From: a virus
Lineage: Duplodnaviria; Heunggongvirae; Uroviricota; Caudoviricetes
IMG/VR virus record: IMGVR_UViG_2734482772_000007
Span: 1 to 18,093 of that record
Length of the DNA: 18,093 nucleotides
Direction: 5' to 3' (one strand)
The position numbers were made by a program, and so were the translations under genes. Every line of letters begins with the position of its first letter. The first letter of the stretch is position 1. A model generated the notes under the pieces. It saw only the letters and a program-made list of their open reading frames with translations, did not search any database and was not told the DNA's origin. Below, in pieces: positions 1-17,423 of the stretch.

Positions 1-19
1 TCACGGTAATACGCATGGG

Positions 20-802: not shown

Positions 803-831
803 GATGGCGTCTCCGGTAGTAACTTACTGTT

Positions 832-859: not shown

Positions 860-864
860 GACCA

Positions 865-894
865 TAAAAAACCTCCGCGTTTGCGAAGGTTTTT
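865..894 (-). terminator. putative bidirectional rho-independent terminator
   Basis: AACCTCCGC / GCGAAGGTT imperfect inverted repeat (869-891) flanked by an A-run (865-870) and a T-run (890-894); sits just after the stop of the 902-1240 gene. Confidence 0.45.
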
Positions 895-901
895 GTTCAT
901 A

Positions 902-1882: not shown

Positions 1883-1886
1883 AATG

Positions 1887-1929
1887 ACCAAAACACTACT
1901 TTTGGCAGACCAAAAAACATGTTTTGGCC
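1887..1929. promoter_or_regulatory. pair of CCAAAA...TTTTGG palindromes in a noncoding gap
   Basis: CCAAAA-cactac-TTTTGG (1888-1905) and the near-perfect palindrome CCAAAAAACATGTTTTGG (1910-1927) in the 145-bp gap between the 2037-2447 and 1604-1882 genes. Confidence 0.3.
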
Positions 1930-2036
1930 TGCATTTGATTACTGTTTAAACAACTCGCGAAATCAGGAACGTCGAGTTTCGGTGATGGCTTTCATCGTGT
2001 TGTTGCTCCGTGATTCAGAAAATTTCATGCCGGGCC

Positions 2037-2447
2037 TCAGTATGTGAAATAGACAGTTGCCACGCCGTTATAGTGATCAAACGACACGGCGTTTACCTCA
2101 TAACTGGCCGGTAGCTTCGAGCCAAGAACGTATCCGGGCCACGTTTTCCATGGAATTTCTCTGCTCTCACTGTCGCCATATACCGTACATCCCAGTGAGC
2201 CTACAGCTTCATAAGAACGCTTACCGCACGTTATGAACCCCAGATGTTGCTTACTGCCCTTAACAGAAATCGGGAGAGCACTGGCTGATGCGTTAGCAGC
2301 GTCCCGCTCCTGTTGGCTTGCGATATTCGCAGAGTTTGCAGCAGCTACAGCAGCCGTGGTCGCAGCGGCAGATGCCACAATAACTGCTGAAGCCTGCGTA
2401 TGTTGGGTAATGGTTAGCAATGCCGCCACAAAAATCATTTTCTTCAC
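2037..2447 (-). CDS. secreted/periplasmic protein of unknown function (136 aa), signal peptide, GTG start
   Basis: AGGAGG, 6-nt spacer, GTG at 2447; N-terminus KKMIFVAALLTITQHTQA-SA; Ala/Thr-rich linker then a C-terminal domain ending TVYFTY. Confidence 0.6.
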   Translation of the reverse strand: MKKMIFVAALLTITQHTQASAVIVASAAATTAAVAAANSANIASQQERDAANASASALPISVKGSKQHLGFITCGKRSYEAVGSLGCTVYGDSESREIPWKTWPGYVLGSKLPASYEVNAVSFDHYNGVATVYFTY

Positions 2448-2811
2448 CTGGCACCTCCTTTACATACCGTGATTTTTCCAGCGGTTTTGGGCTGCGCTTC
2501 TGTTTCGCCAGACACCGTAAAAACGAATAGAGGACCACTCCCTAAAACCAAGATATCTATAGCGAACAACAAGCCGATTTGAGATACGGATAAGTTGCCC
2601 CGGCTTTGCTATCAGCAGTCTTGCCTTACGGTTTTTCATCATTTTGCTCTCCTGCGTTTCTTTGCTTCGCGTCGTGCAGCTGCAATACCGGTATGGCGGC
2701 GCTTTTGTGCCGGGATGATGTTGTCAGCCATCAGGACATGTGGCTTTGCAATTAGCGCAGAAGCCCAAAAACGAGTCGAGTACGGTAACAAGCCGATACA
2801 TGCCACACGCA

Positions 2812-3441
2812 TTACTCACCTCCTTTGATGCGAATGCCAGCGGCGCGTGGCACATTAACTTCCACGATTCGTACTGTTGGTTTGTACATCTCAATCGCTG
2901 TCAGCCAGTCAGCTCCTGTCATGCGCTTTTCCGCATCGCCATTAGTCCACTGAACTGGTACACCAATAGCCTTCATCGCGATTTCTATTTCCCCGGCAAT
3001 GGCGCTTTTTCCGCAACCAGTAAAACCAGAAACAACGACAAGAACTTCGCCTTTGGCTGGTTTTATTTCCCGTGCTTCCAGTTCTGCTATGCGCTTCTCT
3101 GCGGCTTCCAGCTTGGCTTCTGCATCTTTGGCTCGCATCTGCCAGTTGATAGCGATGTCGATAACGCTGTTAGCACAACTGGACTCATTCTCTTCGGCAG
3201 CTTTAGCTTCAGAAAGCTCATCAAGCAGTCCAAGAACAACAGTTGGCGTGGCGAGCGTGATAAAACGCATATTGCTCATATGCTCTTCATCGCTAACATC
3301 ATCGCCAGCCTCGACCGCTGCCATGTGCTGAACATAGCCGCTATCACAGGTATTCCAGATTGCCCCTGCCTCGTGCCCCCATTCACCATGTAGCGCTTTT
3401 TCTGCCGCCTCACGCAGTGCCTGATAGTTAATTTTGCTCAC
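2812..3441 (-). CDS. Ead/Ea22-like family protein (about 209 aa) with a C-terminal P-loop-like motif
   Basis: From GTG at 3441 (AGGAGG + 6 nt): MSKINYQALREAAEKA... and FITLATPTVVLGLLDELSEAKAAEE, followed by a coiled-coil-like acidic segment, resemble Ea22-like prophage proteins as I recall them. GFTGCGKS fits the Walker A pattern GxxGxGKS. Confidence 0.55.
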   Translation of the reverse strand: MSKINYQALREAAEKALHGEWGHEAGAIWNTCDSGYVQHMAAVEAGDDVSDEEHMSNMRFITLATPTVVLGLLDELSEAKAAEENESSCANSVIDIAINWQMRAKDAEAKLEAAEKRIAELEAREIKPAKGEVLVVVSGFTGCGKSAIAGEIEIAMKAIGVPVQWTNGDAEKRMTGADWLTAIEMYKPTVRIVEVNVPRAAGIRIKGGE

Positions 3442-3802
3442 GGGTTGCCTCCTGTTCATTTCCCTTGTTCAGTTTTCGTCTGCATACAGCGCAATCATCG
3501 GGGCTTTCGAAGCTGTCTGGTTCGCGTTCACCAGAGTACATCCATCTGCGGCAGATACTGGTTACTTCATTCTCGGCAAAATAATGATATTTTTTCGACC
3601 TGGCTGGTCTGCCCCATCCAGCTGTTCTCTCGCTCACATCACGTTTTAATCCCCCCGCGCGGACCTCCTTTAGCTCCAGAAGGGCCAGCCTCAGAAGCGT
3701 CCACCACTCACTGTCTGCAACCGGCTCCATATCAAGCGCTCTGTCAGCATCAGCAATCAGTCTGGTCAGGCTCTTATCGCTTATTCTGGTTTGCTGGCTC
3801 AC
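3428..3802 (-). CDS. hypothetical phage early protein (about 124 aa from GTG at 3802)
   Basis: AGGAGG + 6 nt + GTG start; the upstream ATG at 3820 has no SD of its own (the SD would lie inside it). C-terminal tail NEQEATREQN is encoded by the repeat cassette. Confidence 0.5.
   Translation of the reverse strand: MSQQTRISDKSLTRLIADADRALDMEPVADSEWWTLLRLALLELKEVRAGGLKRDVSERTAGWGRPARSKKYHYFAENEVTSICRRWMYSGEREPDSFESPDDCAVCRRKLNKGNEQEATREQN
3436..3461. repeat. 26-nt repeat copy B (Shine-Dalgarno plus start-codon cassette)
   Basis: GCTCACGGGTTGCCTCCTGTTCATTT; 25/26 identical to copy A at 3797-3822. On the - strand it reads AAATGAACAGGAGGCAACCCGTGAGC. Confidence 0.8.
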
Positions 3803-4088
3803 TGGTTGCCTCCTGTTCATTTTTTTCATTCCGGTACACAAGAATTACGACATCTCCCCGGGTAATTACGCGTGCGGGGTCGCCCTGTTGCATATGGTCA
3901 ATATCAAACGCGTCATTAAACGCATTTAGCGCCTTCGCGCGCTTGTCTTTACAACGACGTTTTTCACGCTGCTTAAAGAGCGAAGAAATCAACCACCTGA
4001 ATGACATAAAAGTGATATAGCCATAACCGATAAGCGCCAGACCTGTATTCATGGCTACATCTATCGTTATCGTTTTATCAATGACCAT
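3774..4088 (-). CDS. small membrane protein of unknown function (104 aa)
   Basis: AGGAGG + 7 nt + ATG at 4088; one hydrophobic helix (NTGLALIGYGYITFMSF) followed by a basic stretch; C-terminal NEQEATSE tail encoded by repeat copy A. Confidence 0.45.
   Translation of the reverse strand: MVIDKTITIDVAMNTGLALIGYGYITFMSFRWLISSLFKQREKRRCKDKRAKALNAFNDAFDIDHMQQGDPARVITRGDVVILVYRNEKNEQEATSEPANQNKR
3797..3822. repeat. 26-nt repeat copy A (Shine-Dalgarno plus start-codon cassette)
   Basis: GCTCACTGGTTGCCTCCTGTTCATTT; 25/26 identical to copy B at 3436-3461. Confidence 0.8.
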
Positions 4089-4308
4089 TGCCAGCCTCCT
4101 GTTTTGCCACTTTAAACGCCCGTAACATCGGGACCGTTTTACCGCTGATGACAGTGTTCATAACAATACCGATTCCACTGTGATGTAACGCTCCCGGTGC
4201 AACAAACAGCGCAGCATCTACAACTCTGAAGTAACGGTGGAACTCCCAGAACCAGCAAGAAATAGTGATAGTTGCGGTGACCCCATGGTCATAAAATTCA
4301 ATTTTCAT
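4078..4308 (-). CDS. hypothetical phage early protein (76 aa)
   Basis: ATGA start/stop overlap with the upstream gene (translational coupling); operon strand. Confidence 0.4.
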   Translation of the reverse strand: MKIEFYDHGVTATITISCWFWEFHRYFRVVDAALFVAPGALHHSGIGIVMNTVISGKTVPMLRAFKVAKQEAGNGH

Positions 4309-4532
4309 TTGCAGTTAAACCTTCTCTTATGACGTTCTACGGCAGCCTTCATATTGTTGTGCACGGTTCTTTTAATAATCCGACGTCCCACACTGTCATA
4401 GAACCGCCACCGGGAAGCCCCCGGATATCCGGGGAACTCAACCACCGCGCTACCGTCATTCATCCTGTATTCGTGGCGTTCTCCGGGCGGCTGGTATATT
4501 GCTTCGGTAACACTGAGAAGTTTAAAAGCCAT
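4305..4532 (-). CDS. hypothetical phage early protein (75 aa)
   Basis: GGAGG SD upstream of the ATG at 4532; begins 2 nt after the stop of the DUF2786-like gene. Confidence 0.45.
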   Translation of the reverse strand: MAFKLLSVTEAIYQPPGERHEYRMNDGSAVVEFPGYPGASRWRFYDSVGRRIIKRTVHNNMKAAVERHKRRFNCK

Positions 4533-4534
4533 CG

Positions 4535-5245
4535 TTACACCCTCCCCAGTGCCAGCGGTCTGTTGCTCTGACCATTAACCCCCTGATGCAGTCTGGCGTT
4601 TTTCCCGGCGATAAAACCGGCTGTAGCGGCAAACGCTGCACCTCGACACGCTTTAGCTGTGCGCATATCCCCGTCGCGTAGCCCCTTAGTGCTGTGCAGG
4701 TTCTTTCTGTAAAGCTCAAGGCGGCTTTTTTCTTCCGGGGAGACGTCATACACCGCAATGACATCACGGGCACCAAAGACCCAGCCTTCGCAGAACTGGT
4801 CGCCACGGGCTACCCGCGTGGACGGACCACAACGTTTGCAGTGTTTATCCTGATATTTCTTGCGCTCTGCCATCATCTGACGGGAAAGCACATCAAACGC
4901 GTAAGCCGCGATTTCCGGGCGGCTGTCAGAGCCATAAAAACGCACGTGACGTTTGAGTGAACCAGAAGCCCGGTATTCGCCGGATATGTAACACTCGACA
5001 CCGAAGGCTTTACAGACCAGGTCACACAGGATGTGCATATAACGCGGCGGTGTACTGGCATCACTCGGCGCACCCGCGCTGGCAGCTTCCTGAATGTCGA
5101 ACAATTCAGCGTCGTTTTCGCTGATGCCATGCTGGCGCATATAAGCCTGGGCTTTTGCAATAGCGTTAGCGGCTTCTTCCGGGCTTGATGTTCCTCTGGC
5201 AAGGCGTAACAGTTTTTTGATTTTGGCAATGTATTTATCTTTCAT
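4535..5245 (-). CDS. DUF2786-like phage protein with Cys-rich C-terminal half (236 aa)
   Basis: N-terminus MKDKYIAKIKKLLRLA...SPEEAANAIAKAQAYMRQHGISE resembles the DUF2786 N-terminal helix as I recall it; C-terminal half has CDLVC ... CKRCG ... FCEGW; GAGG SD upstream. Confidence 0.6.
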   Translation of the reverse strand: MKDKYIAKIKKLLRLARGTSSPEEAANAIAKAQAYMRQHGISENDAELFDIQEAASAGAPSDASTPPRYMHILCDLVCKAFGVECYISGEYRASGSLKRHVRFYGSDSRPEIAAYAFDVLSRQMMAERKKYQDKHCKRCGPSTRVARGDQFCEGWVFGARDVIAVYDVSPEEKSRLELYRKNLHSTKGLRDGDMRTAKACRGAAFAATAGFIAGKNARLHQGVNGQSNRPLALGRV

Positions 5246-5258
5246 GGTCGTCTGAACC

Positions 5259-5441
5259 TCAGCATCCTGAATTCTGAATTACGCAACTTCCGGCACGGCC
5301 TTCAGGAACGTGGGGAGTTCGTTCTGGCTGCGGCGCTGGATGAACATCTGCTGTCGATTGAGAACTGGTCGCAAGACGATTAAAACAAACGATTGTCAGA
5401 TTAATTTCGCGGGCGAATTTTTTTTGCTTAGCGATATTCAT
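5259..5441 (-). CDS. possible small protein (60 aa)
   Basis: GAGGAAG SD 8 nt upstream of the ATG at 5441; its stop overlaps the SD of the next gene. No motif support. Confidence 0.3.
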   Translation of the reverse strand: MNIAKQKKFAREINLTIVCFNRLATSSQSTADVHPAPQPERTPHVPEGRAGSCVIQNSGC

Positions 5442-5461
5442 AAATAAACTTCCTCAGATTC

Positions 5462-5498
5462 AGGCGTAAGCCAGCCCCGGCGGGTTTACGCCTGTTTT
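5462..5498 (+). terminator. GC-rich hairpin plus T-run, terminator-like in the + orientation
   Basis: AGGCGTAA (5462-5469) pairs with TTACGCCT (5486-5493) around a GC-rich loop, followed by TGTTTT (5494-5498). No + strand gene is evident upstream. Confidence 0.3.
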
Positions 5499-5523
5499 AA
5501 ATAACAATTAAAAACAAATTAAA

Positions 5524-5715
5524 TTAATGCGGTGCTTTCAGTGTTTCGACTTTTACGAAATAAGGCTCGACATTAATTTCAACCACACAACCACATTTAA
5601 AATCTCTGGCAGGTGAAACGGTTTTCACCACACGACCACCACGCAACGCCGGATGTGCAGTGTGCATGAAGCGAGTCCCTACCGGATACTGCTTATTAAA
5701 GTTCTTCGCATTCAT
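5524..5715 (-). CDS. hypothetical small phage protein (63 aa)
   Basis: ORF on the operon strand with a GGAAG-type SD; overlaps the 3' end of the ANR-like gene by about 20 nt. Confidence 0.4.
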   Translation of the reverse strand: MNAKNFNKQYPVGTRFMHTAHPALRGGRVVKTVSPARDFKCGCVVEINVEPYFVKVETLKAPH

Positions 5716-5929
5716 GGCGTGGCTTCCATCCTTTCAGGTGAGCATTAGCACAGAACTCGGCCCGGTGTTCCGCCCAGATGCGGCGCAGGGTGCTACACGG
5801 GCTTTGTGCTGCCTTACGCCACAGCTTTTCAGCCTCGGCATAATCGCCGCGTTGTTCTGCTCTGGACGCGCCCAGCGAATACGCCGCGCAACTATTTCCG
5901 GCTCTGTACTCTTTGATATCCTGATGCAT
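5696..5929 (-). CDS. ANR-family-like small regulator (77 aa from the ATG at 5929)
   Basis: RAEQRGDYAEAEKLWRKAA...WAEHRAEFC pattern resembles ANR-family prophage proteins as I recall them; the ATG at 5929 lies 1 nt after the upstream gene's stop. Confidence 0.5.
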   Translation of the reverse strand: MHQDIKEYRAGNSCAAYSLGASRAEQRGDYAEAEKLWRKAAQSPCSTLRRIWAEHRAEFCANAHLKGWKPRHECEEL

Positions 5930-5930
5930 G

Positions 5931-6575
5931 TTAAACCCCTGCAATATCAAGCGGGATTGCGCGGTATTCAGCAGAATCACCGACGCGCTCATACACGCGG
6001 ATATAGCTTTTGCTGCCAATTACCTGGACGGCTTCACCAATCAGTTTCATGGCGTTATCCCAGCGTTCCTCCGTAATATCGAGACGACGCAGAGCCAGAA
6101 CGCGCCCGGTGTTAATGTTACCTTCCTTGTCCGTGCTGAATGCTTCACTGATGATGGCTTTAATTTCAGGGCGCGCTCCTTCCGTCCAGTCAGCCAGACA
6201 GTCATCAATCAGTGCCTTCGCGGTCTGAATGCGTTCATCAAGCGCGATACGGTCCTGCATGGCGCGCTGAATCTTGTAACGCCCGTCAAAGCTGTAAAGT
6301 GTGATATTCCCTTTTTTACCGCCTTTCACAGCGCCGTATTTCTCCGCCGACAGGTCAATAAATGCCTGAATATCACCAAACGCACGCAGTTTCAGTTCAC
6401 GCAGTGAGGCAGAGGCAGCAATCACCATCTCCACAAGCTCACCGACCAGCTGCTCACGGTCGCGGTCAATATCTTTGATAAGACTTTCAGGCGTCATCAC
6501 ACCACGGGCATCAACCCAGTAGCCTTCCTGCACTTTATTTTTTGTATATTGCTTAACTTTATTTTCAGTCGTCAT
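5931..6575 (-). CDS. Mu-like early protein, DUF3164-like (214 aa)
   Basis: Size, position in the early operon and overall composition fit the DUF3164 family of Mu-like prophages; recalled from memory, not searched. Confidence 0.5.
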   Translation of the reverse strand: MTTENKVKQYTKNKVQEGYWVDARGVMTPESLIKDIDRDREQLVGELVEMVIAASASLRELKLRAFGDIQAFIDLSAEKYGAVKGGKKGNITLYSFDGRYKIQRAMQDRIALDERIQTAKALIDDCLADWTEGARPEIKAIISEAFSTDKEGNINTGRVLALRRLDITEERWDNAMKLIGEAVQVIGSKSYIRVYERVGDSAEYRAIPLDIAGV

Positions 6576-6604
6576 AATTAAATTACCTCAGTGATATTTA
6601 CAGA

Positions 6605-6820
6605 TTAATGTGTGTTATGTGCGCGAGGCGCAACATTTTCAGAAAAAAGATTCACGCCGTTATAGTCATTTCTGAGCGTTTCCTTGATAGCATCATGTAA
6701 TCTTGTTGCCACCTGAAACTCCTTTTCGGAAGCTCCGTCCTTCGAATAACTCCCCGTGGTCTGGGTTAAAACACAGCCTTTTTCATCGGTATAGATAATT
6801 ACTTCTAACTTGACCGCCAT
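6605..6820 (-). CDS. hypothetical small early protein (71 aa)
   Basis: GAGGAA SD 7-8 nt upstream of the ATG at 6820. Confidence 0.5.
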   Translation of the reverse strand: MAVKLEVIIYTDEKGCVLTQTTGSYSKDGASEKEFQVATRLHDAIKETLRNDYNGVNLFSENVAPRAHNTH

Positions 6821-6832
6821 TCTGATTTCCTC

Positions 6833-7072
6833 TCATTGCCATACGACGGTGCAGCCGTCGATACAGGACGTTTTAACCACGCGGCGCAGGCCGCTGAATG
6901 TCTGGATGATTTCCGTTACCGGCCATACAGGACCACCCACGGGCGGGCAGGCATAAACCACAGGTAAACGGTGATGTTGTCCCGTTACACGACCACCAGT
7001 GGTGTGGATGGCCACACGGGCACGGGAACGGACGGCGTTAATGGTCTGCTTGTCCATCGTCTTGTTCTCCAT
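6833..7072 (-). CDS. hypothetical small early protein (79 aa) in the position Mu uses for kil
   Basis: Start overlaps the B-like gene's stop by 1 nt (TAATG-type coupling); no sequence motif recognised. Confidence 0.45.
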   Translation of the reverse strand: MENKTMDKQTINAVRSRARVAIHTTGGRVTGQHHRLPVVYACPPVGGPVWPVTEIIQTFSGLRRVVKTSCIDGCTVVWQ

Positions 7073-7965
7073 CAGTGAATTAACATTTCTGCGAATTTAT
7101 CAATGGCCTGCACACTGACCGGCGCATCGCTGATATCACAAATCCGGTACACACCACGCGCCAGCTTGAACAGACGGCGGGCATTACCCAGCGAACGTGT
7201 ATAAAGCGCCTCGCTGATTTCCGGCTCTGCTGCTTCCGGCATCAACCCGGTAGCTATCTGGTTAAAATCTTCCTGCGACAACGTATCGCCCAGGTTAAGC
7301 GCCAGCGCCACGCGGCTGTATAACTGGGCGAACTCACCACGACGCCCCTTGAGGTTAATCAGAAGGCGAGGCATACCCGCCAGAACAACCCCGATACCCG
7401 CTTTGTCATGCAGACGGCGCAGAACCTCCAGTGCGCGATAGGGGAGCAGTTCAGCCTCGTCCACCATCAGCAGACGACCGGAATCACGCAGTTCGCGCAC
7501 ACAGGCATCTATCAGTTCGTGAATGTTGCCGCGAACCTTTACCCCCAGCTGGCGGCACAACTCCTCAAGCAGTGTTCTGGCTGTATAGCCCGGGTCAGCC
7601 TCAATCAGGACCGCATCCCGGTTTCTGGCGGCGTATTCACGCAGAATCATTGTTTTGCCAAGACCTGCTGCGCCATACAGCACACAGATTTCACATTCCA
7701 GGTGAGCGTAGGCCAGCACCTCCAGTCCTTTGGCAGTCATACTGGTGGTCACAAACTTTGCTTTAATACGGCGGCTGTTTTCCTTTTCCCGCTCACGGGT
7801 CACAAAGGCAGAAATGCGTTCTTCAATATCAGCCATATCGCCCTGATATTTACCCTGTAAATACTGGCTGATAACGGCGCTGCTACGCCCAATGGCACGG
7901 GCGACGTGGGTCTGCGTATAGCCGCGACGGGCCATTACGTCATTTAATTGCGTAATTAAACTCAT
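7072..7965 (-). CDS. MuB-like transposition ATPase / target DNA activator (297 aa)
   Basis: N-terminal HTH region (YTQTHVARAIGRSSAVISQYLQGKY), Walker A GAAGLGKT, Walker B-like LLMVDEAE; immediately downstream of the transposase, as in Mu. Confidence 0.85.
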   Translation of the reverse strand: MSLITQLNDVMARRGYTQTHVARAIGRSSAVISQYLQGKYQGDMADIEERISAFVTREREKENSRRIKAKFVTTSMTAKGLEVLAYAHLECEICVLYGAAGLGKTMILREYAARNRDAVLIEADPGYTARTLLEELCRQLGVKVRGNIHELIDACVRELRDSGRLLMVDEAELLPYRALEVLRRLHDKAGIGVVLAGMPRLLINLKGRRGEFAQLYSRVALALNLGDTLSQEDFNQIATGLMPEAAEPEISEALYTRSLGNARRLFKLARGVYRICDISDAPVSVQAIDKFAEMLIH

Positions 7966-7983
7966 AATTAAATACCTTTTAAA

Positions 7984-10026
7984 TTAACGGTTGTTTGTGC
8001 CGTTTTTCTTTAAATTGCGCTCGCGCTCAGATGCGAATAAATAAAGTTCTTCTTTTTCCTTTTTCTCCGGGCGTTCCAGTCCATATCCCAGATTAAAGTC
8101 AGGCTTCTGCGTAATAGCCGGGGTAAGCTCGCGTTTCGCCTCTTCGATTTTCTGCGTGGCCCGTGCAATGCGGCCCCTGACGCGTTTCTCCAGTTTTTGT
8201 TCGATAACTGGTTTAGCGAAGGCATCAACCTTGTTACCGTTCCAGATGGCATCGCAGATATAAGAGCCATCAGCCCGCCGGACAATGACGCTGTTTGCAT
8301 CATGAATATCGTAACTGACCCTGACTTCATTCCCGTGCTCTGCGGCCAGCTCATATGAGTAATAAATATTGTTGAATAACTGAATTTCCCCGCGAAATGT
8401 TTTGCGCGTCACTTCCGGTCTGAACATTTCATGCAGCTCTTCCGGCGACAGGAAATCAATTTCAACATTCTGCTCTTTTATCAGTTTCCGGCGATACGCT
8501 GCCGGGCTGTAATATTCGCCATCCTCTTTGCGGGGAAGGCTGCTGTGTGGCCGGTTGTTATAGCGTCTGACTTCCAGTTCTATAGCTGCCATCAGTTGCT
8601 CAAAGGTGGGGACTTCATCCCTCGCCTTAACCTGCCGTTTTGTCAGTTCTTTCCCTTTGTGGGTGGCCTTAATGGCTGACTGCATAATCCGTTGCTGCAT
8701 CATTACGGTTTCCTTGTCTGCTCCCTTTGAGCAGTACGTCTGGAAACTCAGGGCCACATCCCGGGGAATTTCCTTGTTAAGCCTTTCAATCACCCCGCGC
8801 CCCTGTGGGTTACCTGGTATCCCCGTGTGATGTTCCACACCCAGCCGGGGCAGAATCCCGGTAATATCGGCATCAAGCACCCGGTTTTTTTCACCGCCCC
8901 CGTTATCGGAGTAATAAATCAGCGGTATCCCGTGCTGCGCCATGCCGTAACGTAACGCATCAGCAACGGCTATCACGTTCTCCGACAGGGACAGTGACCA
9001 GCCCACAACAAAGCGCTGCCCCGCATCCATAACCAGCGTCACTTCTGGCCGGAAAATATTGCCGGTCAGTGGGTTAAACGCGGTCATTTTCATACAGTGA
9101 CCATCCCCGACCCATACCGCATTAACCGGTAATGTGCTCCAGTCGCGCCGCACAAAGGGATTGAGCGAACGCCAGGCTGAACCGGTGGAGCGGAAACGCT
9201 CTTTAACAATCACCGGGACGCTGCTTAACACCCGTCTTACTGCGTGAACTGAAGGCAGTGCCGCCAGCATTCCCGCATCATTCGCGTGTTTTTCATGCCA
9301 CCAGGCTGAAAACTCACGATACGCATATTCAACAGTCGGGCGCTTCCATGAGCGATAGAACATAAAGAAATCGCTCAACCACCAGACCTGCTCCCACGGT
9401 GTTCCCTTATGATGACCGGGAGCCAGTAACGCCAGTAACTGATTGGCATCACCGCGCGCCATCACCCAGCTGGAGTACCAGCTATCCAGGCTGCCGGTGC
9501 TGACACCGGTTCGCTTTCCCTGACGTGCATTTGCAGTATTCGCTGCTTCGATAATGCGGTCAGGTAACGCCCCCATGCGCACACCATCAACGATGTGCTT
9601 TAAAGCGGCCTTCCTGGTCATTCCGGCATACTCGCGCAGCTTATGCACTTCAGTAGCCAGCAATATCCGCGCATCAGCGATGGCCTTTTGCTTGTCAGTC
9701 AGTGCCTGAACTTCACGTAATGCCAGTTCCGGGCATTTGACCATCACCTCCAGTTCATCGCGAACGGCGACGTTTTTAACTGCCTTCGCCTCAACTACGA
9801 CGGGCAGTTGCGCATCTTCCAGGACCTGATGGGTCAGGCGCTTACGTAAAACTTTCTGCGCTTCAGCGGGCAGGCAGTCGATGTGATACTCGAATGCTTT
9901 GGTGCCTTCACGCTTGCGCTTCCATTCCGGGTGCGTCTCTGTGATCCGATTGAGCGTCCAGCGCACCCCCTGAACTGTACCGGGCAAACCAGGAAGACCG
10001 GCCAGCTCATTGGCTGAATAAAACAT
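7984..10026 (-). CDS. MuA-like DDE transposase (680 aa)
   Basis: N-terminus (LAGLPGLPGT ... GTKAFEYHIDCLPAEAQ) resembles the MuA end/enhancer-binding domain; central region looks like an rve/DDE core (VWVGDGHCMK ... YYSDNGGGE); size and position after ner fit. Confidence 0.9.
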   Translation of the reverse strand: MFYSANELAGLPGLPGTVQGVRWTLNRITETHPEWKRKREGTKAFEYHIDCLPAEAQKVLRKRLTHQVLEDAQLPVVVEAKAVKNVAVRDELEVMVKCPELALREVQALTDKQKAIADARILLATEVHKLREYAGMTRKAALKHIVDGVRMGALPDRIIEAANTANARQGKRTGVSTGSLDSWYSSWVMARGDANQLLALLAPGHHKGTPWEQVWWLSDFFMFYRSWKRPTVEYAYREFSAWWHEKHANDAGMLAALPSVHAVRRVLSSVPVIVKERFRSTGSAWRSLNPFVRRDWSTLPVNAVWVGDGHCMKMTAFNPLTGNIFRPEVTLVMDAGQRFVVGWSLSLSENVIAVADALRYGMAQHGIPLIYYSDNGGGEKNRVLDADITGILPRLGVEHHTGIPGNPQGRGVIERLNKEIPRDVALSFQTYCSKGADKETVMMQQRIMQSAIKATHKGKELTKRQVKARDEVPTFEQLMAAIELEVRRYNNRPHSSLPRKEDGEYYSPAAYRRKLIKEQNVEIDFLSPEELHEMFRPEVTRKTFRGEIQLFNNIYYSYELAAEHGNEVRVSYDIHDANSVIVRRADGSYICDAIWNGNKVDAFAKPVIEQKLEKRVRGRIARATQKIEEAKRELTPAITQKPDFNLGYGLERPEKKEKEELYLFASERERNLKKNGTNNR

Positions 10027-10262
10027 TACGCCGCCTTACTGGCATACCGGCTTGGCCAGATCTCCGCAGGTTCCACACCAATAGCATCGGCTATGATGCG
10101 TTCATATTTAGGGCATGAGCGATACAGTGCATTTTTTAAAGAGTCTTTTTTTAGACCAGCGCGTTCAGAAAGTTCACGCAATGTAAAACCTTTGGTGTGC
10201 ACAGCGGCAACGATGTACTCGCGGTGCCAGTCTTTGTTCATTACTTCATTTCTAACCATCAT
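10026..10262 (-). CDS. ner: Ner-like DNA-binding protein (78 aa from ATG at 10262)
   Basis: MNKDWHREYIVAAVHTKGFTLRELSERAGL...NALYRSCPKYERIIADAIGVEPAEIWPSRY closely resembles the Mu Ner / E. coli Nlp family; 1-nt stop/start overlap with the transposase. The longer ORF to 10412 is rejected. Confidence 0.85.
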   Translation of the reverse strand: MMVRNEVMNKDWHREYIVAAVHTKGFTLRELSERAGLKKDSLKNALYRSCPKYERIIADAIGVEPAEIWPSRYASKAA

Positions 10263-10278
10263 TAGGTTACCCTTAAAA

Positions 10279-10321
10279 GTTATCCGTGCGGATAACACCG
10301 CCGTGTTATCCCTTCGGATAC
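10279..10321. promoter_or_regulatory. operator-like palindromes in the repressor-ner divergent control region
   Basis: GTTATCCG-TG-CGGATAAC (10279-10296, perfect 8-bp arms) and imperfect GTTATCC-CTTC-GGATAC (10305-10321); a further ATCCG at about 10330. Confidence 0.5.
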
Positions 10322-10444
10322 AAGTATTGATCCGTATGTAGCCCATGTAAAGCAAAAATAGCTCTTTCTTTGTATTTTCTTTTTGATTTTGGTCTTTATA
10401 TGGTTTTTGCAATTAAAATCAATCAGTTATAGAGGAAAGAAAAA

Positions 10445-11092
10445 ATGACTAGAAATGATGATGCTTTTTCTTTTGTCGACCAGGGAAAAGAAAGTTTCAG
10501 AGAGCGTTTAGTAAAGCTGATAGGTAACCGTAGTGTCAGAACTGCTGCGAGTGATTGGGGAATCCCCCCTTCAACCTTAAACAACTACATTCATAAAGGA
10601 ACAGAGCCTTCTTTTAAAATAGCTTGTCTTATCTCAGATAAAGAACAAGTGAGCTTAAATTGGCTCGCTTATGGTGAGGAACCCACCGCCAAAGAAGGTT
10701 CTCTATCAAATCAAACAGCGCAGCCTTCTCCCGATATTACAAACGAGCTAGTTAACGAGTTATTGAAAAGAGCGTCCACAGAAGATAAGGAACAACTGAT
10801 AAGTGCAATATGCGATATGGGCATTAAAGGAATCTTGGAACGCCTACAGCAACCCACCAGGCAAACTAAGCAAGCCGATAGCGAACTTGAGGAGCAAAGG
10901 AAGGCCATTCAAAGCCTGAACATCAGGCAATCGCTTAAAGACGCTGTTTGCATGGCATTAGCTGGCGATGAGGAAAATGACAAAGAGATTTTGCGCCGCG
11001 CCAAAGCCATTTTCTGTGCTGGAACACCAGGTGATCGCGTTCCCGTCACACCGGAGCAAGAAACTAAGCCTGTAAACAAGAAATCAGCATAA
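10445..11092 (+). CDS. prophage repressor, CI-type HTH (215 aa), in the position of Mu c
   Basis: Divergent from ner; HTH region VRTAASDWGIPPSTLNNYIHKGTEPS followed by VSLNWLAYGE, typical of phage CI-like repressors; GAGGAAAG SD; no S24 peptidase motifs seen. Confidence 0.7.
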   Translation: MTRNDDAFSFVDQGKESFRERLVKLIGNRSVRTAASDWGIPPSTLNNYIHKGTEPSFKIACLISDKEQVSLNWLAYGEEPTAKEGSLSNQTAQPSPDITNELVNELLKRASTEDKEQLISAICDMGIKGILERLQQPTRQTKQADSELEEQRKAIQSLNIRQSLKDAVCMALAGDEENDKEILRRAKAIFCAGTPGDRVPVTPEQETKPVNKKSA

Positions 11093-11251
11093 GCGCCTCG
11101 TTTTGGCGGGGCGTGTGCTGTTAGCTAATCAGCAATAACCACAACAAAACCGAACACAACAGATGAGAACAAATTGAGGAAAACGGGTAAGGATAAAACA
11201 CTTTTTTAAAAGCATTTAAAACCCGTTAAGTTTGTAGCAGAACCAGATCAA

Positions 11252-11406
11252 AAGCGCCCAGAAAAAAGCGCAAAAAAAAGCGTTTTTGGTCATTTCTCAC
11301 AAATCCGCCCAGAATCACACTAAATCACCATACCCCGCGCCACACAAGGCTTGCAGGTTCTACCAGGCTGCACGAACTCCGCCCAGAATTGATCACTACC
11401 CCACAC
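11252..11406. repeat. terminal direct repeats, candidate transposase-binding sites of the prophage end
   Basis: GCGCCCAGAA (11254-11263), TCCGCCCAGAATCAC (11304-11318) and TCCGCCCAGAATTGATCAC (11378-11396); the sequence ends ...CACACA at 11406, consistent with a 5'-TG terminus read on the - strand. Confidence 0.45.
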
Positions 11407-14400
11407 ATGGGCGGAAAACCGGCAGCGCGGCAGGGTGACATGACCCGCAAGGGACTGGATATTGTGCAGGGTTCAGCAGGGGTGCTGATAGGTGCGCCAA
11501 CCGGTGTGGCCTGCTCGGTGTGTCCCACAAAAAAGGACAGTCCGAACTATGGCAGCCCGGTGAACCCGCTACTCGGTGCGAAGGTTCTGCCTGTTGAAAC
11601 CGACCTGGCACTGCCCGGCCCGCTGCCGTTTATTCTTTTCCGCGCCTACAGCAGCTACCGGACCAGGACGCCCGCGCCAGTGGGCGTGTTTGGTCCCGGC
11701 TGGAAAGCGCCCTTCGATATCCGCTTACAGATACGCGATGAAGGCCTGATACTCAACGACAGCGGTGGCAGGAGCATTCACTTTGAGCCGTTGTTTCCCG
11801 GCGAGATAAGCTACAGCCGCAGCGAGTCGTTCTGGCTGGCAAGGGGCGGAGTGCTGAAACAACACAAAGGCCATCCGCTTGCGCGGCTCTGGCGGGCGTT
11901 GCCGGAAGCGGTCCGTCTGAGTCCACACACCTATATGATGGCTGTCAGCACAACCGGGCAGTGGCTGATACTCGGCTGGCCGGAGCGGGTGCCGGGGGCG
12001 GACGAGGTGCTGCCGCCTCCGCCGCCCGCATACCGGGTGCTGACGGGGGTGGTGGACGGCTTCGGGCGGACGCTGGCCTTTCATCGGGCAGCTAAGGGTG
12101 ACGTGGCGGGCGCGGTGACGGGGGTGACGGACGGCGCGGGCCGCCGTTTTCACCTGGCGCTGACCACGCAGGCGCAGCGGGCGGAAGCCTTCCGTAAACA
12201 GCGCGCCACGTCTTTATCTTCCCCGGCCAGTCCCCGTTCTGTTTCCTCTTCTCAGGTTTTCCCCGACACGCTGCCCGCCGGTACAGAGTACGGTGTCGAT
12301 AACGGTATCCGGCTGGAGGCGGTGTGGCTGACACACGACCCGGCATACCCGGATGAACAGCCGACTGCGCCGCTGGCGCGCTACACGTACACGGCCGGTG
12401 GTGAACTGCGGGCGGTGTATGACCGCAGCGGAACGCAGGTGCGCGGGTTTACTTATGATGCGGAGCACGCCGGGCGGATGGTGGCGCACCATTATGCAGG
12501 GAGACCGGAGAGCCGCTACCGGTATGATGATACCGGGCGGGTGACGGAGCAGGTCAACCCGGAGGGGCTGGACTATCGCTTTGAGTACGGGCAGGACCGT
12601 GTGACCATCACGGACAGCCTGAACCGGCGGGAGGTGCTGTACACGGAGGGCGAAGGCGGCCTGAAGCGTGTGGTGAAGAAGGAGCATGCGGACGGCAGCA
12701 TCACCCGCAGCGAGTATGATGAGGCGGGGAGGCTGAAGGCGCAGACGGATGCGGCGGGGCGGCGGACGGAGTACCGGCTGCATATGGCGTCGGGCGCGGT
12801 GACAGCGGTGACGGGGCCGGACGGCAGGACGGTGCGGTATGGCTATAACAGCCAGCGGCAGGTGACGTCAGTGACGTACCCGGACGGGCTTCGCAGCAGC
12901 CGGGAGTATGATGAGAAGGGAAGGCTGGCGGCGGAGACCTCACGCAGCGGTGAGACGACGAGTTACAGCTATGATGACCCGGCGAGTGAGCTGCCGACAG
13001 GGATACAGGACGCGACGGGCAGTACAAAACAGATGGCATGGAGCCGTTACGGTCAACTGCTGGCCTTTACGGACTGCTCGGGGTACACGACGCGGTATGA
13101 GTACGACCGGTACGGTCAACAAATCGCCGTTCACCGGGAAGAAGGCATCAGCACTTACAGCAGTTATAACCCGCGTGGGCAAATGGTCAGTCAGAAGGAT
13201 GCGCAGGGGCGTGAAACCCGTTATGAGTACAGCGCCGCAGGAGACCTGACAGCAACGGTATCACCGGACGGTAAACGCAGCACCACCGAATATGATAAAC
13301 GTGGGCGTCCGGTGAGTGTGACGGAAGGTGGACTGACGCGCAGCATGGGGTATGACGCCGCCGGGCGCATCACCGTGCTGACTAACGAGAACGGCAGCCA
13401 GTCCACGTTCCGGTATGACCCGGTGGACAGGCTGACGGAGCAGCGCGGCTTTGACGGCCGGACGCAACGTTACCAGTATGACCTGACCGGAAAACTCACG
13501 CAGAGTGAAGACGAGGGGCTTATCACCCTCTGGCACTACGATGCGTCGGACCGCATCACGCACCGGACGGTGAACGGCGACCCGGCAGAGCAGTGGCAGT
13601 ATGATGAGCACGGGTGGTTAACCACCCTCAGCCATACCAGTGAAGGCCACCGCGTGTCGGTCCACTACGGGTACGACGATAAGGGCCGCCTGACGGGCGA
13701 ACGGCAGACGGTGGAGAACCCGGAGACGGGGGAACTGCTCTGGCAGCATGAGACGAAACACGCCTACAACGAACAGGGGCTGGCAAACCGCTTTCAGGCA
13801 GACAGCCTGCCGCCGGTGGAGTGGCTGACCTACGGCAGCGGTTACCTGGCGGGCATGAAGCTGGGCGGGACGCCGCTGGTCGAGTATACGCGGGACAGGC
13901 TGCACCGTGAGACGGTGCGCAGCTTCGGCAGCAGGGCAGGCAGTAATGCCGCATATGAACTGACCAGCACATACACCCCCGCAGGCCAGTTACAGAGCCA
14001 GCACCTGAACAGCCTGGTGTATGACCGTGACTACGGGTGGAATGACAACGGCGACCTGGTGCGCATCAGCGGTCCGCGACAGACGCGGGAATACGGCTAC
14101 AGTGCCACGGGCAGGCTGGAGAGCGTGCGCACCCTCGCACCGGACCTGGACATCCGCATCCCGTATGCCACCGACCCGGCGGGAAACCGCCTGCCGGACC
14201 CGGAGCTACACCCGGACAGCACGCTCACGGCGTGGCCGGATAACCGCATCGCAGAGGATGCGCACTATGTTTACCACTATGATGAATACGGCAGACTGAC
14301 GGAGAAGACGGACCGCATCCCGGCGGGTGTGATACGGACGGACGACGAGCGGACCCACCACTACCACTACGACAGCCAGCACCGCCTGGTGTTCCACACG

Positions 14401-15654
14401 CGGATACAGCATGGCGAGCCACTGGTCGAGAGCCGCTACCTCTACGACCCGCTGGGACGGCGAATGGCGAAACGGGTATGGCGGCGGGAGCGTGACCTGA
14501 CGGGGTGGATGTCGCTGTCGCGTAAACCGGAGGAGACATGGTACGGCTGGGACGGCGACAGGCTGACGACGGTACAGACCGACACCACGCGTATCCAGAC
14601 GGTATACCAGCCGGGGAGCTTCGCGCCGCTCATCCGCATCGAAACAGACAACGGTGAACGGGAGAAAGCGCAGTGCCGCAGCCTGGCGGAGAAGTTACAG
14701 CAGGAAGGGAGCGAAGACGGTCACGGTGTGGTGTTCCCGGCTGAACTGGTGGGGCTGCTGGACAGGCTGGAGGGGGAAATCCGGGCAAACTGCGTGAGCA
14801 GTGAAAGCCGCCAGTGGCTTGCGCAGTGCGGGCTGACGGTGGAGCGGCTGGCGGCACAGATAGAGCCGGTTTATTTGCCTGAGCGAAAAATACATCTTTA
14901 TCACTGTGACCACCGGGGCCTGCCGCTGGCGCTTATCAGTGAAGACGGCAATACGGCGTGGAGCGCGGAATATGATGAATGGGGCAACCAGCTTAATGAG
15001 GAGAACCCGCATCACCTGCACCAGCCGTACCGGCTGCCGGGGCAGCAGTATGATAAGGAGTCGGGGCTGTACTATAACCGTCACCGGTACTACGATCCGT
15101 TGCAGGGGCGGTATATCACCCCGGACCCGATTGGGTTGAGAGGTGGATGGAATATGTATCAGTATCCGTTGAATCCCATACAAGTGATAGACCCAATGGG
15201 GTTAGATGCGATTGAGAATATGACATCAGGTGGACTAATTTATGCCGTATCTGGTGTACCTGGATTGATTGCTGCAAACAGCATTACTAACAGTGCTTAC
15301 CAGTTCGGTTATGATATGGATGCTATTGTTGGCGGAGCTCATAATGGGGCCGCCGATGCAATGAGACATTGTTACTTGATGTGTCGAATGACTAAGACAT
15401 TTGGATCAACAATAGCTGACGTGATAGGTAAAAATCATGAGGCGGCAGGGGATAGACAAGGTCAGCCAGCTAAAGAAAGAATCATGGATCTTAAAAATAA
15501 CACTGTCGGTATTGCTTGTGGCGATTTTTCTGCCAAATGTAGCGATGCATGTATTGAAAAATATAACACTGGGCAACTCTTCGGGTTAGATGGTATAAAA
15601 GCAGATAATCCAATAAAAGCAAAGCAAGGGAGTTCAGATGCTTCAAATTATTAG
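11407..15654 (+). CDS. Rhs-family polymorphic toxin with N-terminal PAAR-like region (1415 aa from ATG at 11407)
   Basis: N-terminus [13 protein letters not shown]...[12 protein letters not shown]; many YD/RHS repeats ([22 protein letters not shown], etc.); DPIGL (15124-15138) and DPMGL (15190-15204) preceding a variable C-terminus. The track's TTG at 11389 is rejected in favour of the ATG. Confidence 0.9.
15205..15651 (+). other. Rhs variable C-terminal toxin domain (about 149 aa), family unassigned
   Basis: Begins right after DPMGL; AT-rich compared with the Rhs core; contains [23 protein letters not shown] (15361-15399), KNHEAAGD and [12 protein letters not shown]; five Cys in total. Confidence 0.6.
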
Positions 15655-16120
15655 AGGCAAACTTGTCATTTTTTTAATTACCCTTTGTTTATTTGTTGTT
15701 TACCTTGGGTTTGATAACAATTCAAATTCTGACATCGTATTTTATGGACATAAAACACCAAAGAGCGTTGAGATATATCTTTCTGAAAAAAATATTATTT
15801 ATAAAATAATTAATGACCAAAAAATTAGTAGAGGGAATGGTCATTTTATAAGTATAATGGTTAATAATTACAGGACGCACTGTGGAGTGGTTGATATAAA
15901 TCTTAATTTTTTCAATGATATTCTTTATAGCGTGCGATTAAAAAACATTAGTAAACTGGAGAATATGGAGTTCTGCGCTAAAAAACAACGGGTGTATTTT
16001 AGTGATAAAAACAAGAAGGCTAGTTATAAAATAATTAATTATGGAGACTATTACGATGTTGATTATTATGATAACAATTTGAAAAATGAAGTTTTTGACT
16101 GGATTGGTAAATGGTCATAA
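15638..16120 (+). CDS. putative Rhs immunity protein (160 aa), N-terminal membrane anchor
   Basis: ATG at 15638 overlaps the rhs 3' end by 17 nt, with AAGGGAG SD; N-terminus [20 protein letters not shown] is hydrophobic; very AT-rich, N/K/Y/D-rich. Confidence 0.7.
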
Positions 16121-16300
16121 TGAACAACACCAGAAAGAGAAAAATATAAAATACATACAGAAAGACATGAGAGCAAGGGACGGGGCAGGGCAAGATCATG
16201 AAAATTGTGATGTAAATCACGATTTTCATCTTGGCTTTAACGCCTACAGGTGATCAAAATTTAACCTTTGGAATAACTAAAAAGATAAAAAAGGACCCAG

Positions 16301-17423
16301 GTGAGTATTCAAAGTTTGCTTGATTATATTTCAGTGATCCCTGATATACGACAACAAGGAAAGGTTAAACATAAATTATCTGCTATTTTGTTTCTCACCG
16401 TATGTGCAGTAATTGCAGGTGCCGATGAGTGGCAGGAAATTGAAGATTTTGGACATGAAAGACTTGAATGGCTAAAGAAATATGGTGATTTTGATAATGG
16501 CATTCCGGTCGATGACACCATTGCACGCGTTGTGAGTAACATTGACAGTTTGGCCTTTGAAAAGATGTTTATTGAATGGATGCAGGAGTGCCATGAAATC
16601 ACTGATGGTGAAATTATAGCAATAGATGGAAAGACCATAAGAGGCTCCTTTGATAAGGGAAAAAGAAAAGGAGCAATCCATATGGTGAGTGCATTCTCGA
16701 ACGAAAATGGTGTTGTACTGGGGCAGGTGAAAACGGAAGCCAAAAGTAATGAGATTACAGCCATTCCAGAGTTGCTTAACCTACTGTATTTAAAGAAAAA
16801 TTTGATAACCATTGATGCTATGGGCTGTCAGAAAGATATCGCTTCGAAGATCAAAGATAAAAAAGCAGATTATCTTCTGGCAGTAAAAGGCAATCAGGGG
16901 AAATTACATCATGCATTCGAGGAAAAATTTCCTGTAAATGTGTTTTCTAATTATAAAGGCGATTCGTTTAGTACGCAGGAGATAAGTCATGGAAGAAAAG
17001 AAACACGTTTGCATATTGTCAGTAACGTAACGCCTGAACTTTTGTGATTTTGAATTCGAATGGAAGGGATTAAAAAAGCTTTGTGTAGCATTGTCATTCA
17101 GGCAGAAGAAAGAAGATAAATCAGCAGAAGGTGTAAGCATCCGATATTATATTTCATCAAAGGATATGGATGCTAAAGAATTTGCACATGCTATCAGAGC
17201 GCACTGGCTGATCGAGCACAGTCTTCATTGGGTGTTAGATGTAAAAATGAATGAAGATGCCAGCCGGATAAGAAGAGGAAACGCAGCCTAAATAATATCT
17301 GGAATAAAGAAGATGGCACTGAATTTATTAAGGGATTGCAAAGACATTAAGGGTGAAGAGGAAAAGAAAGAAGGCTGCGTTAAACACAGGGAAAGATCAT
17401 CAGAAGTTCACTTTTTGTACTAA
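16301..17423 (+). pseudogene. ISAs1-family (H-repeat) transposase, diverged copy, disrupted
   Basis: 16301-17047 encodes an N-terminal part colinear with the second copy ([41 protein letters not shown]). A frameshift at about 17045 moves into the frame encoding [18 protein letters not shown]...RYYISS...[14 protein letters not shown]...RRGNAA, an in-frame TAA sits at 17289-17291, and the tail continues to a stop at 17421-17423. Confidence 0.7.

Follow-up and report, generated by a model that had tools for sequence, protein, structure and literature searches.

The left end of transposable phage Mu runs attL-c-operators-ner-A-B. Its repressor gene c (339-929, minus strand) is read outward and lies 338 nt from the left end. 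On insertion, such phages duplicate a short target, which measures 5 bp in Mu and 6 bp in B3 (PMC8705779). A second described system is relevant to the 3' end of an outward-facing transcript. Rho-dependent mRNAs of E. coli have steady-state 3' ends just past stable low-U stem-loops, with C enriched over G further downstream, and stable U-less hairpins at mRNA ends are ascribed to Rho termination and trimming (PMC6061677). Our literature search found nothing usable on Mu-type repressor transcripts whose 3' ends have been mapped or on outward transcription from Mu ends, nor on the family of the prophage described here or phage insertions in rhs.

This study concerns a stretch of 18,093 nucleotides (the window; IMG/VR record IMGVR_UViG_2734482772_000007) in which a prophage end abuts an rhs gene. 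By the junctions set out below, the prophage sits in the CATG at the rhs start. From the sequence features we think it probable that the repressor mRNA ends inside the phage through Rho, and that the insertion disconnects and silences rhs.

Mu-like prophage end and its insertion site

Judged from gene content and order, positions 1-11405 of the window belong to a transposable prophage of Mu-like type and make up its left end, with the immunity and early regions (Table 1). A MuA-type DDE transposase adjoins a MuB-type AAA+ protein by both Pfam and PHROG matches. The Ner-like gene follows; its mechanical ORF extends to a TTG at 10412, and the RefSeq start in identical relatives corresponds to 10262. 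Between the ner and repressor genes are two palindromes, TATCCGTGCGGATA (10281-10294) and TATCCCTTCGGATA (10307-10320), which may be operators, and a promoter scan placed a promoter-like site on the minus strand (10351-10323). No promoter could be assigned to the repressor gene. An Rfam search of 10200-11600 gave a single match, to RsmY, whose 15 bits (E = 0.59) compare with a gathering score of 57; it was taken as chance.

Table 1. Positions of features in the window (strand: +, plus; -, minus;., none assigned)
Feature	Position	Strand	Evidence or remark
MuB-like AAA+ transposition protein	7072-7965	-	Pfam AAA_22 8.9e-23 and TniB; PHROG 296 'DNA transposition protein' 4.3e-104
MuA-like DDE transposase	7984-10026	-	Pfam Mu-transpos_C 5.3e-17, HTH_Tnp_Mu_1 1.8e-10, rve; PHROG 310 transposase 7e-196
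Ner-like early regulator	10026-10262	-	Pfam HTH_35 3.4e-25; PHROG 769; RefSeq annotation of relatives L002/L003
Divergent operator/promoter region (putative operators)	10263-10444	.	Repeats, promoter scan; GC 0.39
CI-type repressor gene	10445-11092	+	215 aa; Pfam Phage_CI_repr 2.6e-06; PHROG 3037 'transcriptional repressor' 6.4e-58
Conserved 9-bp stem-loop without U-tract, directly 3' of repressor stop	11093-11114	+	ViennaRNA; relatives
Smaller conserved hairpin of 5 bp with a 9-nt loop	11116-11134	+	RNAalifold consensus
A/C-rich, G-poor tract AUAACCACAACAAAACCGAACACAACA	11135-11161	+	10 C vs 1 G in 27 nt; conserved in relatives
Subterminal repeat 3 AAAAGCGCCCAGAAA, likely transposase-binding site L3	11250-11264	+	Repeat family D1
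C-rich, G-poor stretch of phage end	11260-11405	+	C/G ratio 2.0-2.9, 78-nt windows
Weak terminator-like site AAAAGCGC-A8-GCGTTTTT, then GGTCATTTCT	11264-11287	+	Scan; mostly A-U stem
Subterminal repeat 2 AAATCCGCCCAGAAT, likely site L2	11301-11315	+	Repeat search and conservation in relatives
Subterminal repeat 1 AACTCCGCCCAGAAT, likely site L1	11375-11389	+	Repeat search and conservation in relatives
Terminal CA of prophage left end	11404-11405	+	Junction homology; 20 insertion sites
CATG, first host bases, predicted 4-bp target duplication holding rhs start codon	11406-11409	+	
Intact rhs with PAAR-like N-terminus, RHS repeats, DUF6973 C-terminal domain	11407-15654	+	1415 aa; Pfam
160-aa ORF, candidate immunity gene (function from position)	15638-16120	+	Overlaps rhs stop

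As in the Mu-like layout, the repressor gene diverges from both ner and the early operon and reads toward the nearby prophage left end, its stop codon lying 313 nt from the terminus. The first-pass annotation had called this ORF on the plus strand, heading out of the prophage toward a same-strand rhs, and had taken it, with an 'if', for the lysogeny repressor. Its coordinates were confirmed, and the Phage_CI_repr and PHROG 3037 matches, together with the Ner, MuA and MuB neighbours, support its assignment as the immunity-region repressor. The outward orientation is nothing special to rhs. It is the fixed Mu architecture, identical at 20/20 insertion sites of the prophage family; since the orientation is the same at all of these sites and in Mu, it shows no design tied to rhs, and the repressor faces outward because the layout is fixed in this phage group. 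The repressor belongs to the CI-type HTH proteins and not to the Mu c type: the Mu c-type DNA-binding domain (Pfam HTH_Tnp_Mu_1) is absent, and only Phage_CI_repr and PHROG 3037 were matched. Judged by domain content, it corresponds to Mu c in position and is not homologous to it. In being of CI type it presumably recalls the D3112/B3 group.

Homology to other lysogens breaks off at 11405 or 11406; from 11406 onward the sequence is homologous to uninterrupted rhs. Every end at 20 independent insertion sites of the family reads ...CCCCACA, with unrelated flanks. With the end fixed at 11405 and empty loci reading hcp-vgrG-75 bp-rhs, the phage therefore inserted at CATG; the empty site sequence is ...GAAGGAATTGATTCATGGGCGG. 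The 4-bp duplication is present in 4/4 complete relatives; in the window, the second copy falls beyond the stretch. A 5-bp duplication of the Mu type was rejected, as the aligned junction pairs of the four complete relatives share just 4 bp, and moving either prophage end by one base loses the duplication in three of them. The element is of the 36-kb class, the Mu-like prophage of E2348/69 measuring about 35.7 kb.

The CCAGAA core of the subterminal repeats is invariant across 16 relatives, and the bases flanking it co-vary in all three repeats between lineages. The right end of the window prophage lies beyond the stretch; in relatives the right end is TGTAAC... and bears the repeat-1 motif (TTCTGGGC) at the same 18-nt offset. 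With the right end of these relatives, the element has TG...CA ends and several subterminal, putatively transposase-binding repeats that are inverted at the other end. The right junction of the window prophage would be expected to read vgrG-...GGAATTGATTCATG followed directly by TGTAACTTCGCG..., i.e. vgrG-intergenic-CATG and then TGTAAC....

Relatives were drawn from complete E. coli genomes and viral contigs. In E. coli O127:H6 E2348/69, a Mu-like prophage lies in eutC. Together with its relatives, which occur in 60 of 5426 complete E. coli genomes, it is 98-99.9% identical to the window prophage over the repressor gene and attL; hairpin, repeats and end are identical, and the insertion site differs. 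The rhs junction was found in none of the complete genomes of the collection, no place covering at least 80% of the junction query. A scan of the genome collection with the repressor alignment found only one truncated Edwardsiella locus, and among the phages of the collection only Mu-like phages of Yersinia have similar DNA, over the ner region alone (74%).

Stem-loop and spacer downstream of the repressor gene

Immediately after the repressor stop codon, a hairpin at 11094-11113 had earlier been described as weak. Its arms are real and extend to 9 bp (11093-11114), but "weak" is wrong: the stem closes a tetraloop with a predicted -14.2 kcal/mol, and 0/200 shuffles were equally stable (ViennaRNA). 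The hairpin is kept in all relatives, with 96% of cells paired, vs 28-52% when the partners are slid. Compensatory double changes occur at pairs 22-31 and 23-30, the exchanges seen being of C-G with A-U and of G-C with C-G, in 8 distinct sequences that probably represent two or three independent changes only. We propose that this stem-loop is the 3'-end hairpin of the repressor mRNA. The smaller hairpin at 11116-11134 is preserved through one-sided changes alone.

The absence of a clear U-run, also noted earlier, is confirmed: U occupies 4/8 nt past the stem in the window (UGUGCUGUU), and 2-3 of 8 in relatives (CAUGCUGC, for example, has 2/8). The locus thus has the stable GC-rich stem-loop of an intrinsic terminator and lacks its U-rich tract. 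The stem could still act as a U-poor, non-canonical intrinsic terminator that halts most transcripts near 11120 without Rho. Its GC-rich 9 bp and tetraloop directly past the stop codon, its stability, its compensatory changes and the four U of the window tail fit such a role. However, the relatives retain the stem with still fewer U, so the U-tract is not under selection. The consensus terminator scan, whose rule demands 5 of 8 T, left the hairpin unflagged, and comparable U-less mRNA-end hairpins of E. coli are those ascribed to Rho termination and trimming (PMC6061677). We therefore regard Rho-free termination at this stem as unlikely.

The inverted repeat might instead block incoming host transcription to the repressor gene, or be a palindrome bound by a protein. 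Flanks and annotations indicate that transposable phages insert within transcribed genes, and a hairpin can also form on the minus strand (-8.0 to -12 kcal/mol), followed by UUAUGCUGAUUUCUU. Yet of the nine plus-strand pairs three are usually G-U, and these turn into A-C mismatches in the minus-strand hairpin, whose stability is consistently lower (-8.0 vs -14.2; -9.1 vs -14.6 kcal/mol). The stem sequence varies while pairing is retained, which argues for RNA pairing and against a sequence-specific protein site. A role of this kind is highly improbable.

Terminator prediction on 11093-11406 agreed with the first-pass annotation in giving no canonical intrinsic terminator, but one weak plus-strand site (11264-11287) was flagged. 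The scan produced 5 hits in total, not above shuffles (2.5 +/- 1.6). The flagged site makes up the inner portion of a longer hairpin of 12 bp with a 22-nt loop (11246-11291, -14.2 kcal/mol in its long version), preserved in relatives through G-U changes only. Because there is no canonical intrinsic terminator between the repressor stop and the rhs ATG, the sequence forces no termination. The promoter scan found no plus-strand promoter-like site in 11093-11406, and hence no outward promoter in the phage end. Two ORFs inside the spacer, 11286-11438 (+) and 11325-11528 (-), were rejected as spurious because they span the phage-host junction and are unannotated in any relative. Extended upstream, the rhs-frame ORF reaches 1421 aa from a TTG at 11389 within the phage end and is junction-specific; a search for this protein, starting with either L or M, found no record.

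The composition of the spacer would suit Rho. The A/C-rich tract at 11135-11161 may serve as a rut site. Over 11260-11405, C/G lies at or above the 95th percentile (1.8), and mostly at or above the 99th (2.23), of plus-strand 78-nt windows in the 18-kb sequence, a composition that may merely reflect the transposase-binding repeats. On the 3' side of the repressor gene, a stable low-U stem-loop is thus followed by sequence richer in C than in G, which is the arrangement of the Rho-dependent module (PMC6061677). From this composition and the analogy with that genome-wide study, we infer that the repressor 3' end depends on Rho.

The rhs start region and read-through

Proteins identical to the 1415-aa Rhs occur in uninterrupted genomes, where the gene stands in its native hcp-vgrG-rhs context, 75 bp past vgrG and beside tssBCEFG. 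It carries PAAR-like/DUF6531, RHS repeats, RHS core and a variable C-terminal domain (Pfam), as expected of a T6SS hcp-vgrG-rhs-rhsI locus. In the window, vgrG is displaced from rhs by the prophage, and its adjacency is taken from the uninterrupted genomes. The 160-aa ORF occupies the same position at native loci; its GC is about 0.29-0.35, and it matched no Pfam family.

Uninterrupted E. coli loci, including NCTC9082, have GAAGGA 8 nt ahead of the rhs ATG. The insertion severs rhs from the operon promoter and from this ribosome-binding site, and the ORF is still intact because the duplicated target includes the ATG. That rhs has no SD in the window, as the first-pass annotation had stated, is borne out: the best anti-SD duplex is +0.2 kcal/mol, vs -5.7 at the uninterrupted locus. 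Opening the start region costs 15.9 kcal/mol with the phage end and 9.3 at the native locus, and the AUG lies inside a predicted 8-bp RNA stem formed by TCCGCCCA (11378-11385, repeat 1) with UGGGCGGA (11408-11415). The rhs ORF therefore lacks a functional ribosome-binding site, having neither anti-SD pairing nor a free AUG. In E. coli, starts that lack an SD can be weakly translated.

Against this background, the first-pass annotation had suggested that transcripts from the repressor promoter run through the attL spacer into rhs and the immunity gene, with RNA levels tracking lysogeny. Parts of this stand: the gene is an immunity repressor, it faces outward on the same strand as rhs with 314 nt between its stop and the ATG at 11407, no hairpin with a U-tract intervenes, and the lone plus-strand hit is a weak A-U stem among hits not above shuffles. 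Mu likewise has no terminator-like site after c. The stable conserved hairpin followed by C-rich, G-poor untranslated RNA, however, suits Rho-dependent 3'-end formation. With no SD and a sequestered AUG, the 4.2-kb rhs ORF would be mostly untranslated and open to Rho ahead of the immunity gene. The geometry is also identical at other insertion sites irrespective of the flanking gene, so nothing points to selection for coupling, and Mu insertions are classically strongly polar, which further counts against read-through. We find lysogeny-coupled transcription of this kind quite improbable, and useful expression of Rhs or its immunity protein from read-through unlikely. In a weaker form, low-level read-through from the repressor promoter could be the sole remaining transcription of rhs-rhsI, its RNA being found in lysogens only and falling on induction; this is very doubtful.

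The silencing of rhs by the insertion, which we favour, would proceed as follows. A Mu-like prophage transposed into the CATG carrying the rhs start codon, within the T6SS operon hcp-vgrG-rhs-rhsI. RNA polymerase would run beyond the repressor stop codon, and Rho would load on the RNA of the 313-nt attL spacer, which is untranslated, rich in C and poor in G, and would cause termination; the U-less stem-loop at 11093-11114 would shield the trimmed 3' end of the repressor mRNA. RNA that still crosses 11405 would be poorly translated, the rhs ORF having no SD and its AUG being paired with the phage terminal repeat, and it would stay open to Rho along 4.2 kb. On balance, the insertion most likely disconnects and silences the Rhs effector, rather than coupling it to lysogeny.

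Significance and comparison with known systems

Overall, the case is an ordinary prophage insertion together with a hypothesis on read-through. It resembles a natural knock-out: a transposable prophage stands between hcp-vgrG and the gene pair for a T6SS Rhs effector and its immunity protein, and the effector gene has lost its ribosome-binding site, which would change the competitive weaponry of the strain. That an rhs ORF looks "intact" in a genome does not mean that it is expressed. If read-through did take place, the locus would be a simple case of a host toxin-immunity pair under prophage control, a lysogeny-coupled T6SS effector-immunity module made by a single transposition; the sequence does not favour this. 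The conserved U-less hairpin and the C-rich spacer may show how phages that insert at random terminate their sole outward-facing transcript; that the two are a general insulator by which such phages stop repressor transcription from leaking into host genes is very doubtful.

The gene order of the window prophage is shared with the left end of Mu, the repressor lying 313 nt from the end rather than 338. Both elements have a terminal ...CA, three subterminal repeats and unrelated insertion sites. They differ in the target duplication, which is 4 bp in the relatives of the window prophage and 5 in Mu, and in the hairpin, for which the scan gave no comparable hit after Mu c. With the Rho-dependent 3' ends described by Dar and Sorek in 2018 (PMC6061677), the module shares a stem-loop of terminator size, reduced U and a downstream excess of C over G; that class was defined by Term-seq data, and the module in the window is known from sequence alone. 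As in classical polar insertions of Mu or IS elements, an element of the 36-kb class parts rhs-rhsI from hcp-vgrG and the promoter, and the rhs ribosome-binding site is lost; the window differs from them in that the ORF itself is left intact.

Left end of the prophage and its target site

A Mu-like transposable prophage precedes rhs; the window contains its left (immunity and early) end, in reverse. Its outermost gene encodes a repressor, and the product matches PHROG 3037 ("transcriptional repressor") over its full length (6.4e-58). The Ner-like gene, transposase and ATPase diverge from the repressor gene, with Kil-like and DUF3164 early genes further into the prophage. Two palindromes in the ner-repressor gap, TATCCGTGCGGATA (10281-10294) and TATCCCTTCGGATA (10307-10320), 26 bp apart, are probably operators; a minus-strand promoter-like site (10351-10323) adjoins them. 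In two viral contigs (loci L008 and L009), the repressors are 66% identical overall to that of the window and are identical to it from about residue 131 on and through all of attL. The immunity region is therefore mosaic, with a recombination breakpoint within the repressor gene.

Genes at the prophage-rhs junction
Feature	Position	Strand	Remarks
MuB-type ATPase	7072-7965	-	
MuA-type transposase	7984-10026	-	
Ner-like gene	10026-10262/10412	-	
Repressor	10445-11092	+	215 aa; CI-repressor helix-turn-helix (Pfam Phage_CI_repr, 2.6e-06)
rhs	11407-15654	+	whole ORF
160-aa ORF	15638-16120		candidate immunity gene, after rhs

When 10400-12400 was compared by megablast with 5426 complete E. coli genomes, homology of other lysogens ran to 11405 or 11406, and that of uninterrupted rhs loci began at 11406 or 11410. 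The prophage-rhs junction itself occurred in none of the 5426 genomes; the prophage family was found in 60, including E2348/69, where it measures about 35.7 kb and occupies eutC. At all 20 insertion sites compared (with junctions from TUM1881, E2348/69, five viral contigs and twelve more genomes), the terminus was ...CCCCACA and the flanks were unrelated, which places the prophage end, with its usual CA terminus, at 11405. In each of four complete relatives (junction pairs L003/L004, L002/L024, L022/L028 and L012/L029), the two junctions share 4 bp only: AGTG, GATA, TCAG and CAAA. The predicted target here is thus CATG (11406-11409), which includes the rhs start codon. A relative only 70% identical, in E. 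coli strain 47258 (L011 2950/2951; NZ_CM135147.1), ends on its left within the body of a different rhs paralogue, near codon 470 and in the same orientation; this gene shares 78% identity with the rhs of the window. Chance may account for two rhs insertions in about 20 sites.

Three copies of a direct repeat whose core is CCAGAA begin at 11250, 11301 and 11375, and in complete relatives the same motif lies inverted 18 nt in from the right end, an offset equal to that at the left end. These are likely transposase-binding sites. In alignment A4, which covers the attL spacer and repeats, the three copies (11250-11264, 11301-11315 and 11375-11389) change in concert between lineages, CCGCCCAGAAT versus AGTCCAGAAT or GATCCAGAAT, with the core invariant, as expected for sites co-evolving with the transposase. 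The attL spacer of the family is 300 to 330 nt long; two relatives (L013 and L015) carry a 21-nt insertion in it (A4 columns 108-128) that repeats adjoining TTTTAAA-type sequence.

State of rhs after the insertion

In NCTC9082 and assemblies with the identical 1415-aa Rhs protein, the uninterrupted locus is ordered tssBCEFG <-> hcp-vgrG-(75 bp)-rhs-160-aa ORF, with the native sequence ...AAGCAGAAGGAATTGATTCATGGGCGG. Host sequence in the window resumes at C 11406, one base 5' of the rhs ATG. Since the predicted target holds the start codon, the ORF was left intact; the prophage now stands between rhs and its GAAGGA Shine-Dalgarno (SD), the vgrG-rhs spacer and the promoter of the operon. An in-frame TTG at 11389, within the phage end and likewise lacking an SD, extends the ORF by six codons (11389-15654; mechanical call, 1421 aa); no such 1421-aa protein with an L or M start was found in the gene-position collection. 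A perfect 14-bp inverted repeat, ATGAAAATTGTGAT-GTAA-ATCACGATTTTCAT (16198-16229), lies shortly past the 160-aa ORF, and is followed by a truncated ISAs1-type (H-repeat) transposase ORF (16301-17047).

As the first-pass annotation had noted, rhs has no SD: the best anti-SD pairing 5' of its ATG is +0.2 kcal/mol, versus -5.7 at the native locus. Opening -20 to +13 costs 15.9 kcal/mol versus 9.3, and the AUG is inside a predicted 8-bp stem in which rhs codons 1-3, UGGGCGGA (11408-11415), pair with the terminal repeat, UCCGCCCA (11378-11385). This indicates that an RNA crossing the junction would be poorly translated. Such an RNA would be open to Rho for 4.2 kb ahead of the candidate immunity gene. 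Mu insertions are classically polar. A separate promoter for the candidate immunity gene may exist but draws no support from the promoter-like matches in the AT-rich 3' part of rhs, whose number (6) is at the shuffle level (5.7 +/- 2.2).

The 3' end of the repressor transcript

The ORF call, Pfam and PHROG agree with the earlier view that this is a repressor gene pointing out toward rhs, from which read-through linking toxin and immunity transcription to the prophage state had been proposed. The hairpin after its stop, described there as weak, is a stem-loop of 9 bp with a tetraloop (11093-11114; -14.2 kcal/mol), and none of 200 shuffles was as stable. A clear U-run is indeed lacking: U makes up four of the eight nucleotides of the tail UGUGCUGU, and for this reason a consensus scan does not call the hairpin a terminator. 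The scan does flag another plus-strand site in the spacer, with a mostly A-U stem (11264-11287); the number of terminator-like sites (5 in 1.9 kb versus 2.5 +/- 1.6 in shuffles) carries no weight. With no strong intrinsic terminator in 11093-11406, read-through could still occur.

The stem is present in 16 of 16 relatives (8 distinct sequences across the hairpin segment), and 96% of cells are paired, versus 28-52% after shifting partners by 1-3 columns. Compensatory switches occur in two neighbouring pairs, one from C-G to A-U and one from G-C to C-G, and both sides of the closing pair are altered as well. The independent changes behind this covariation are few. On the plus strand several pairs are G-U, and the minus-strand fold is weaker (-8.0 versus -14.2 and -9.1 versus -14.6 kcal/mol), which points to a structure of the repressor-sense RNA. 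No family in Rfam matches the spacer region. That the hairpin alone acts as a U-poor intrinsic terminator would accord with the conserved stem but is unlikely, because the relatives' tails, CAUGCUGC or UAUGCUGC, have 2-3 U of 8 and are never U-rich; selection thus maintains the stem, not a U-tract.

In E. coli Term-seq data, Rho-terminated mRNAs end just past stable stem-loops that resemble terminator hairpins with fewer U, are followed by C-over-G enrichment, and shield the RNA from 3' exonucleases (PMC6061677). Here, the 27 nt 3' of the second small hairpin contain 10 C and 1 G, and over the 145 nt that close the phage end the C/G ratio is 2.0-2.9, which equals or exceeds the 95th percentile for plus-strand windows of this sequence and for the most part exceeds the 99th. 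The repressor 3' region therefore agrees point by point, in sequence features only, with such ends (PMC6061677), and we infer that the repressor mRNA may have a Rho-dependent 3' end.

The same outward repressor at the other 19 sites faces unrelated neighbour genes in both orientations, giving no hint of selection for coupling. Apart from the terminator scan, all evidence points to an end within the phage and to silencing of rhs. Biologically meaningful read-through into rhs is disfavoured by the sequence and seems unlikely; we rather favour a repressor transcript that ends inside the phage, with rhs silenced and not rewired.

Comparison with Mu

The element has the defining features of Mu-like transposable phages but differs in two respects: the repressor is of CI type, not Mu c type, and the family makes a 4-bp target duplication, whereas this recognisable scar of transposable phages is 5 bp in Mu and 6 bp in B3 (PMC8705779). 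The rhs site is new, for an element of a known kind; the chief points left are the conserved hairpin 3' of the repressor gene and the precise hit on a start codon. In Mu, the c repressor gene (339-929, minus strand) is also aimed at the left end, which makes the repressor orientation a fixed architecture of the phage group; its stop lies 338 nt from that end, compared with 313 nt in this prophage.
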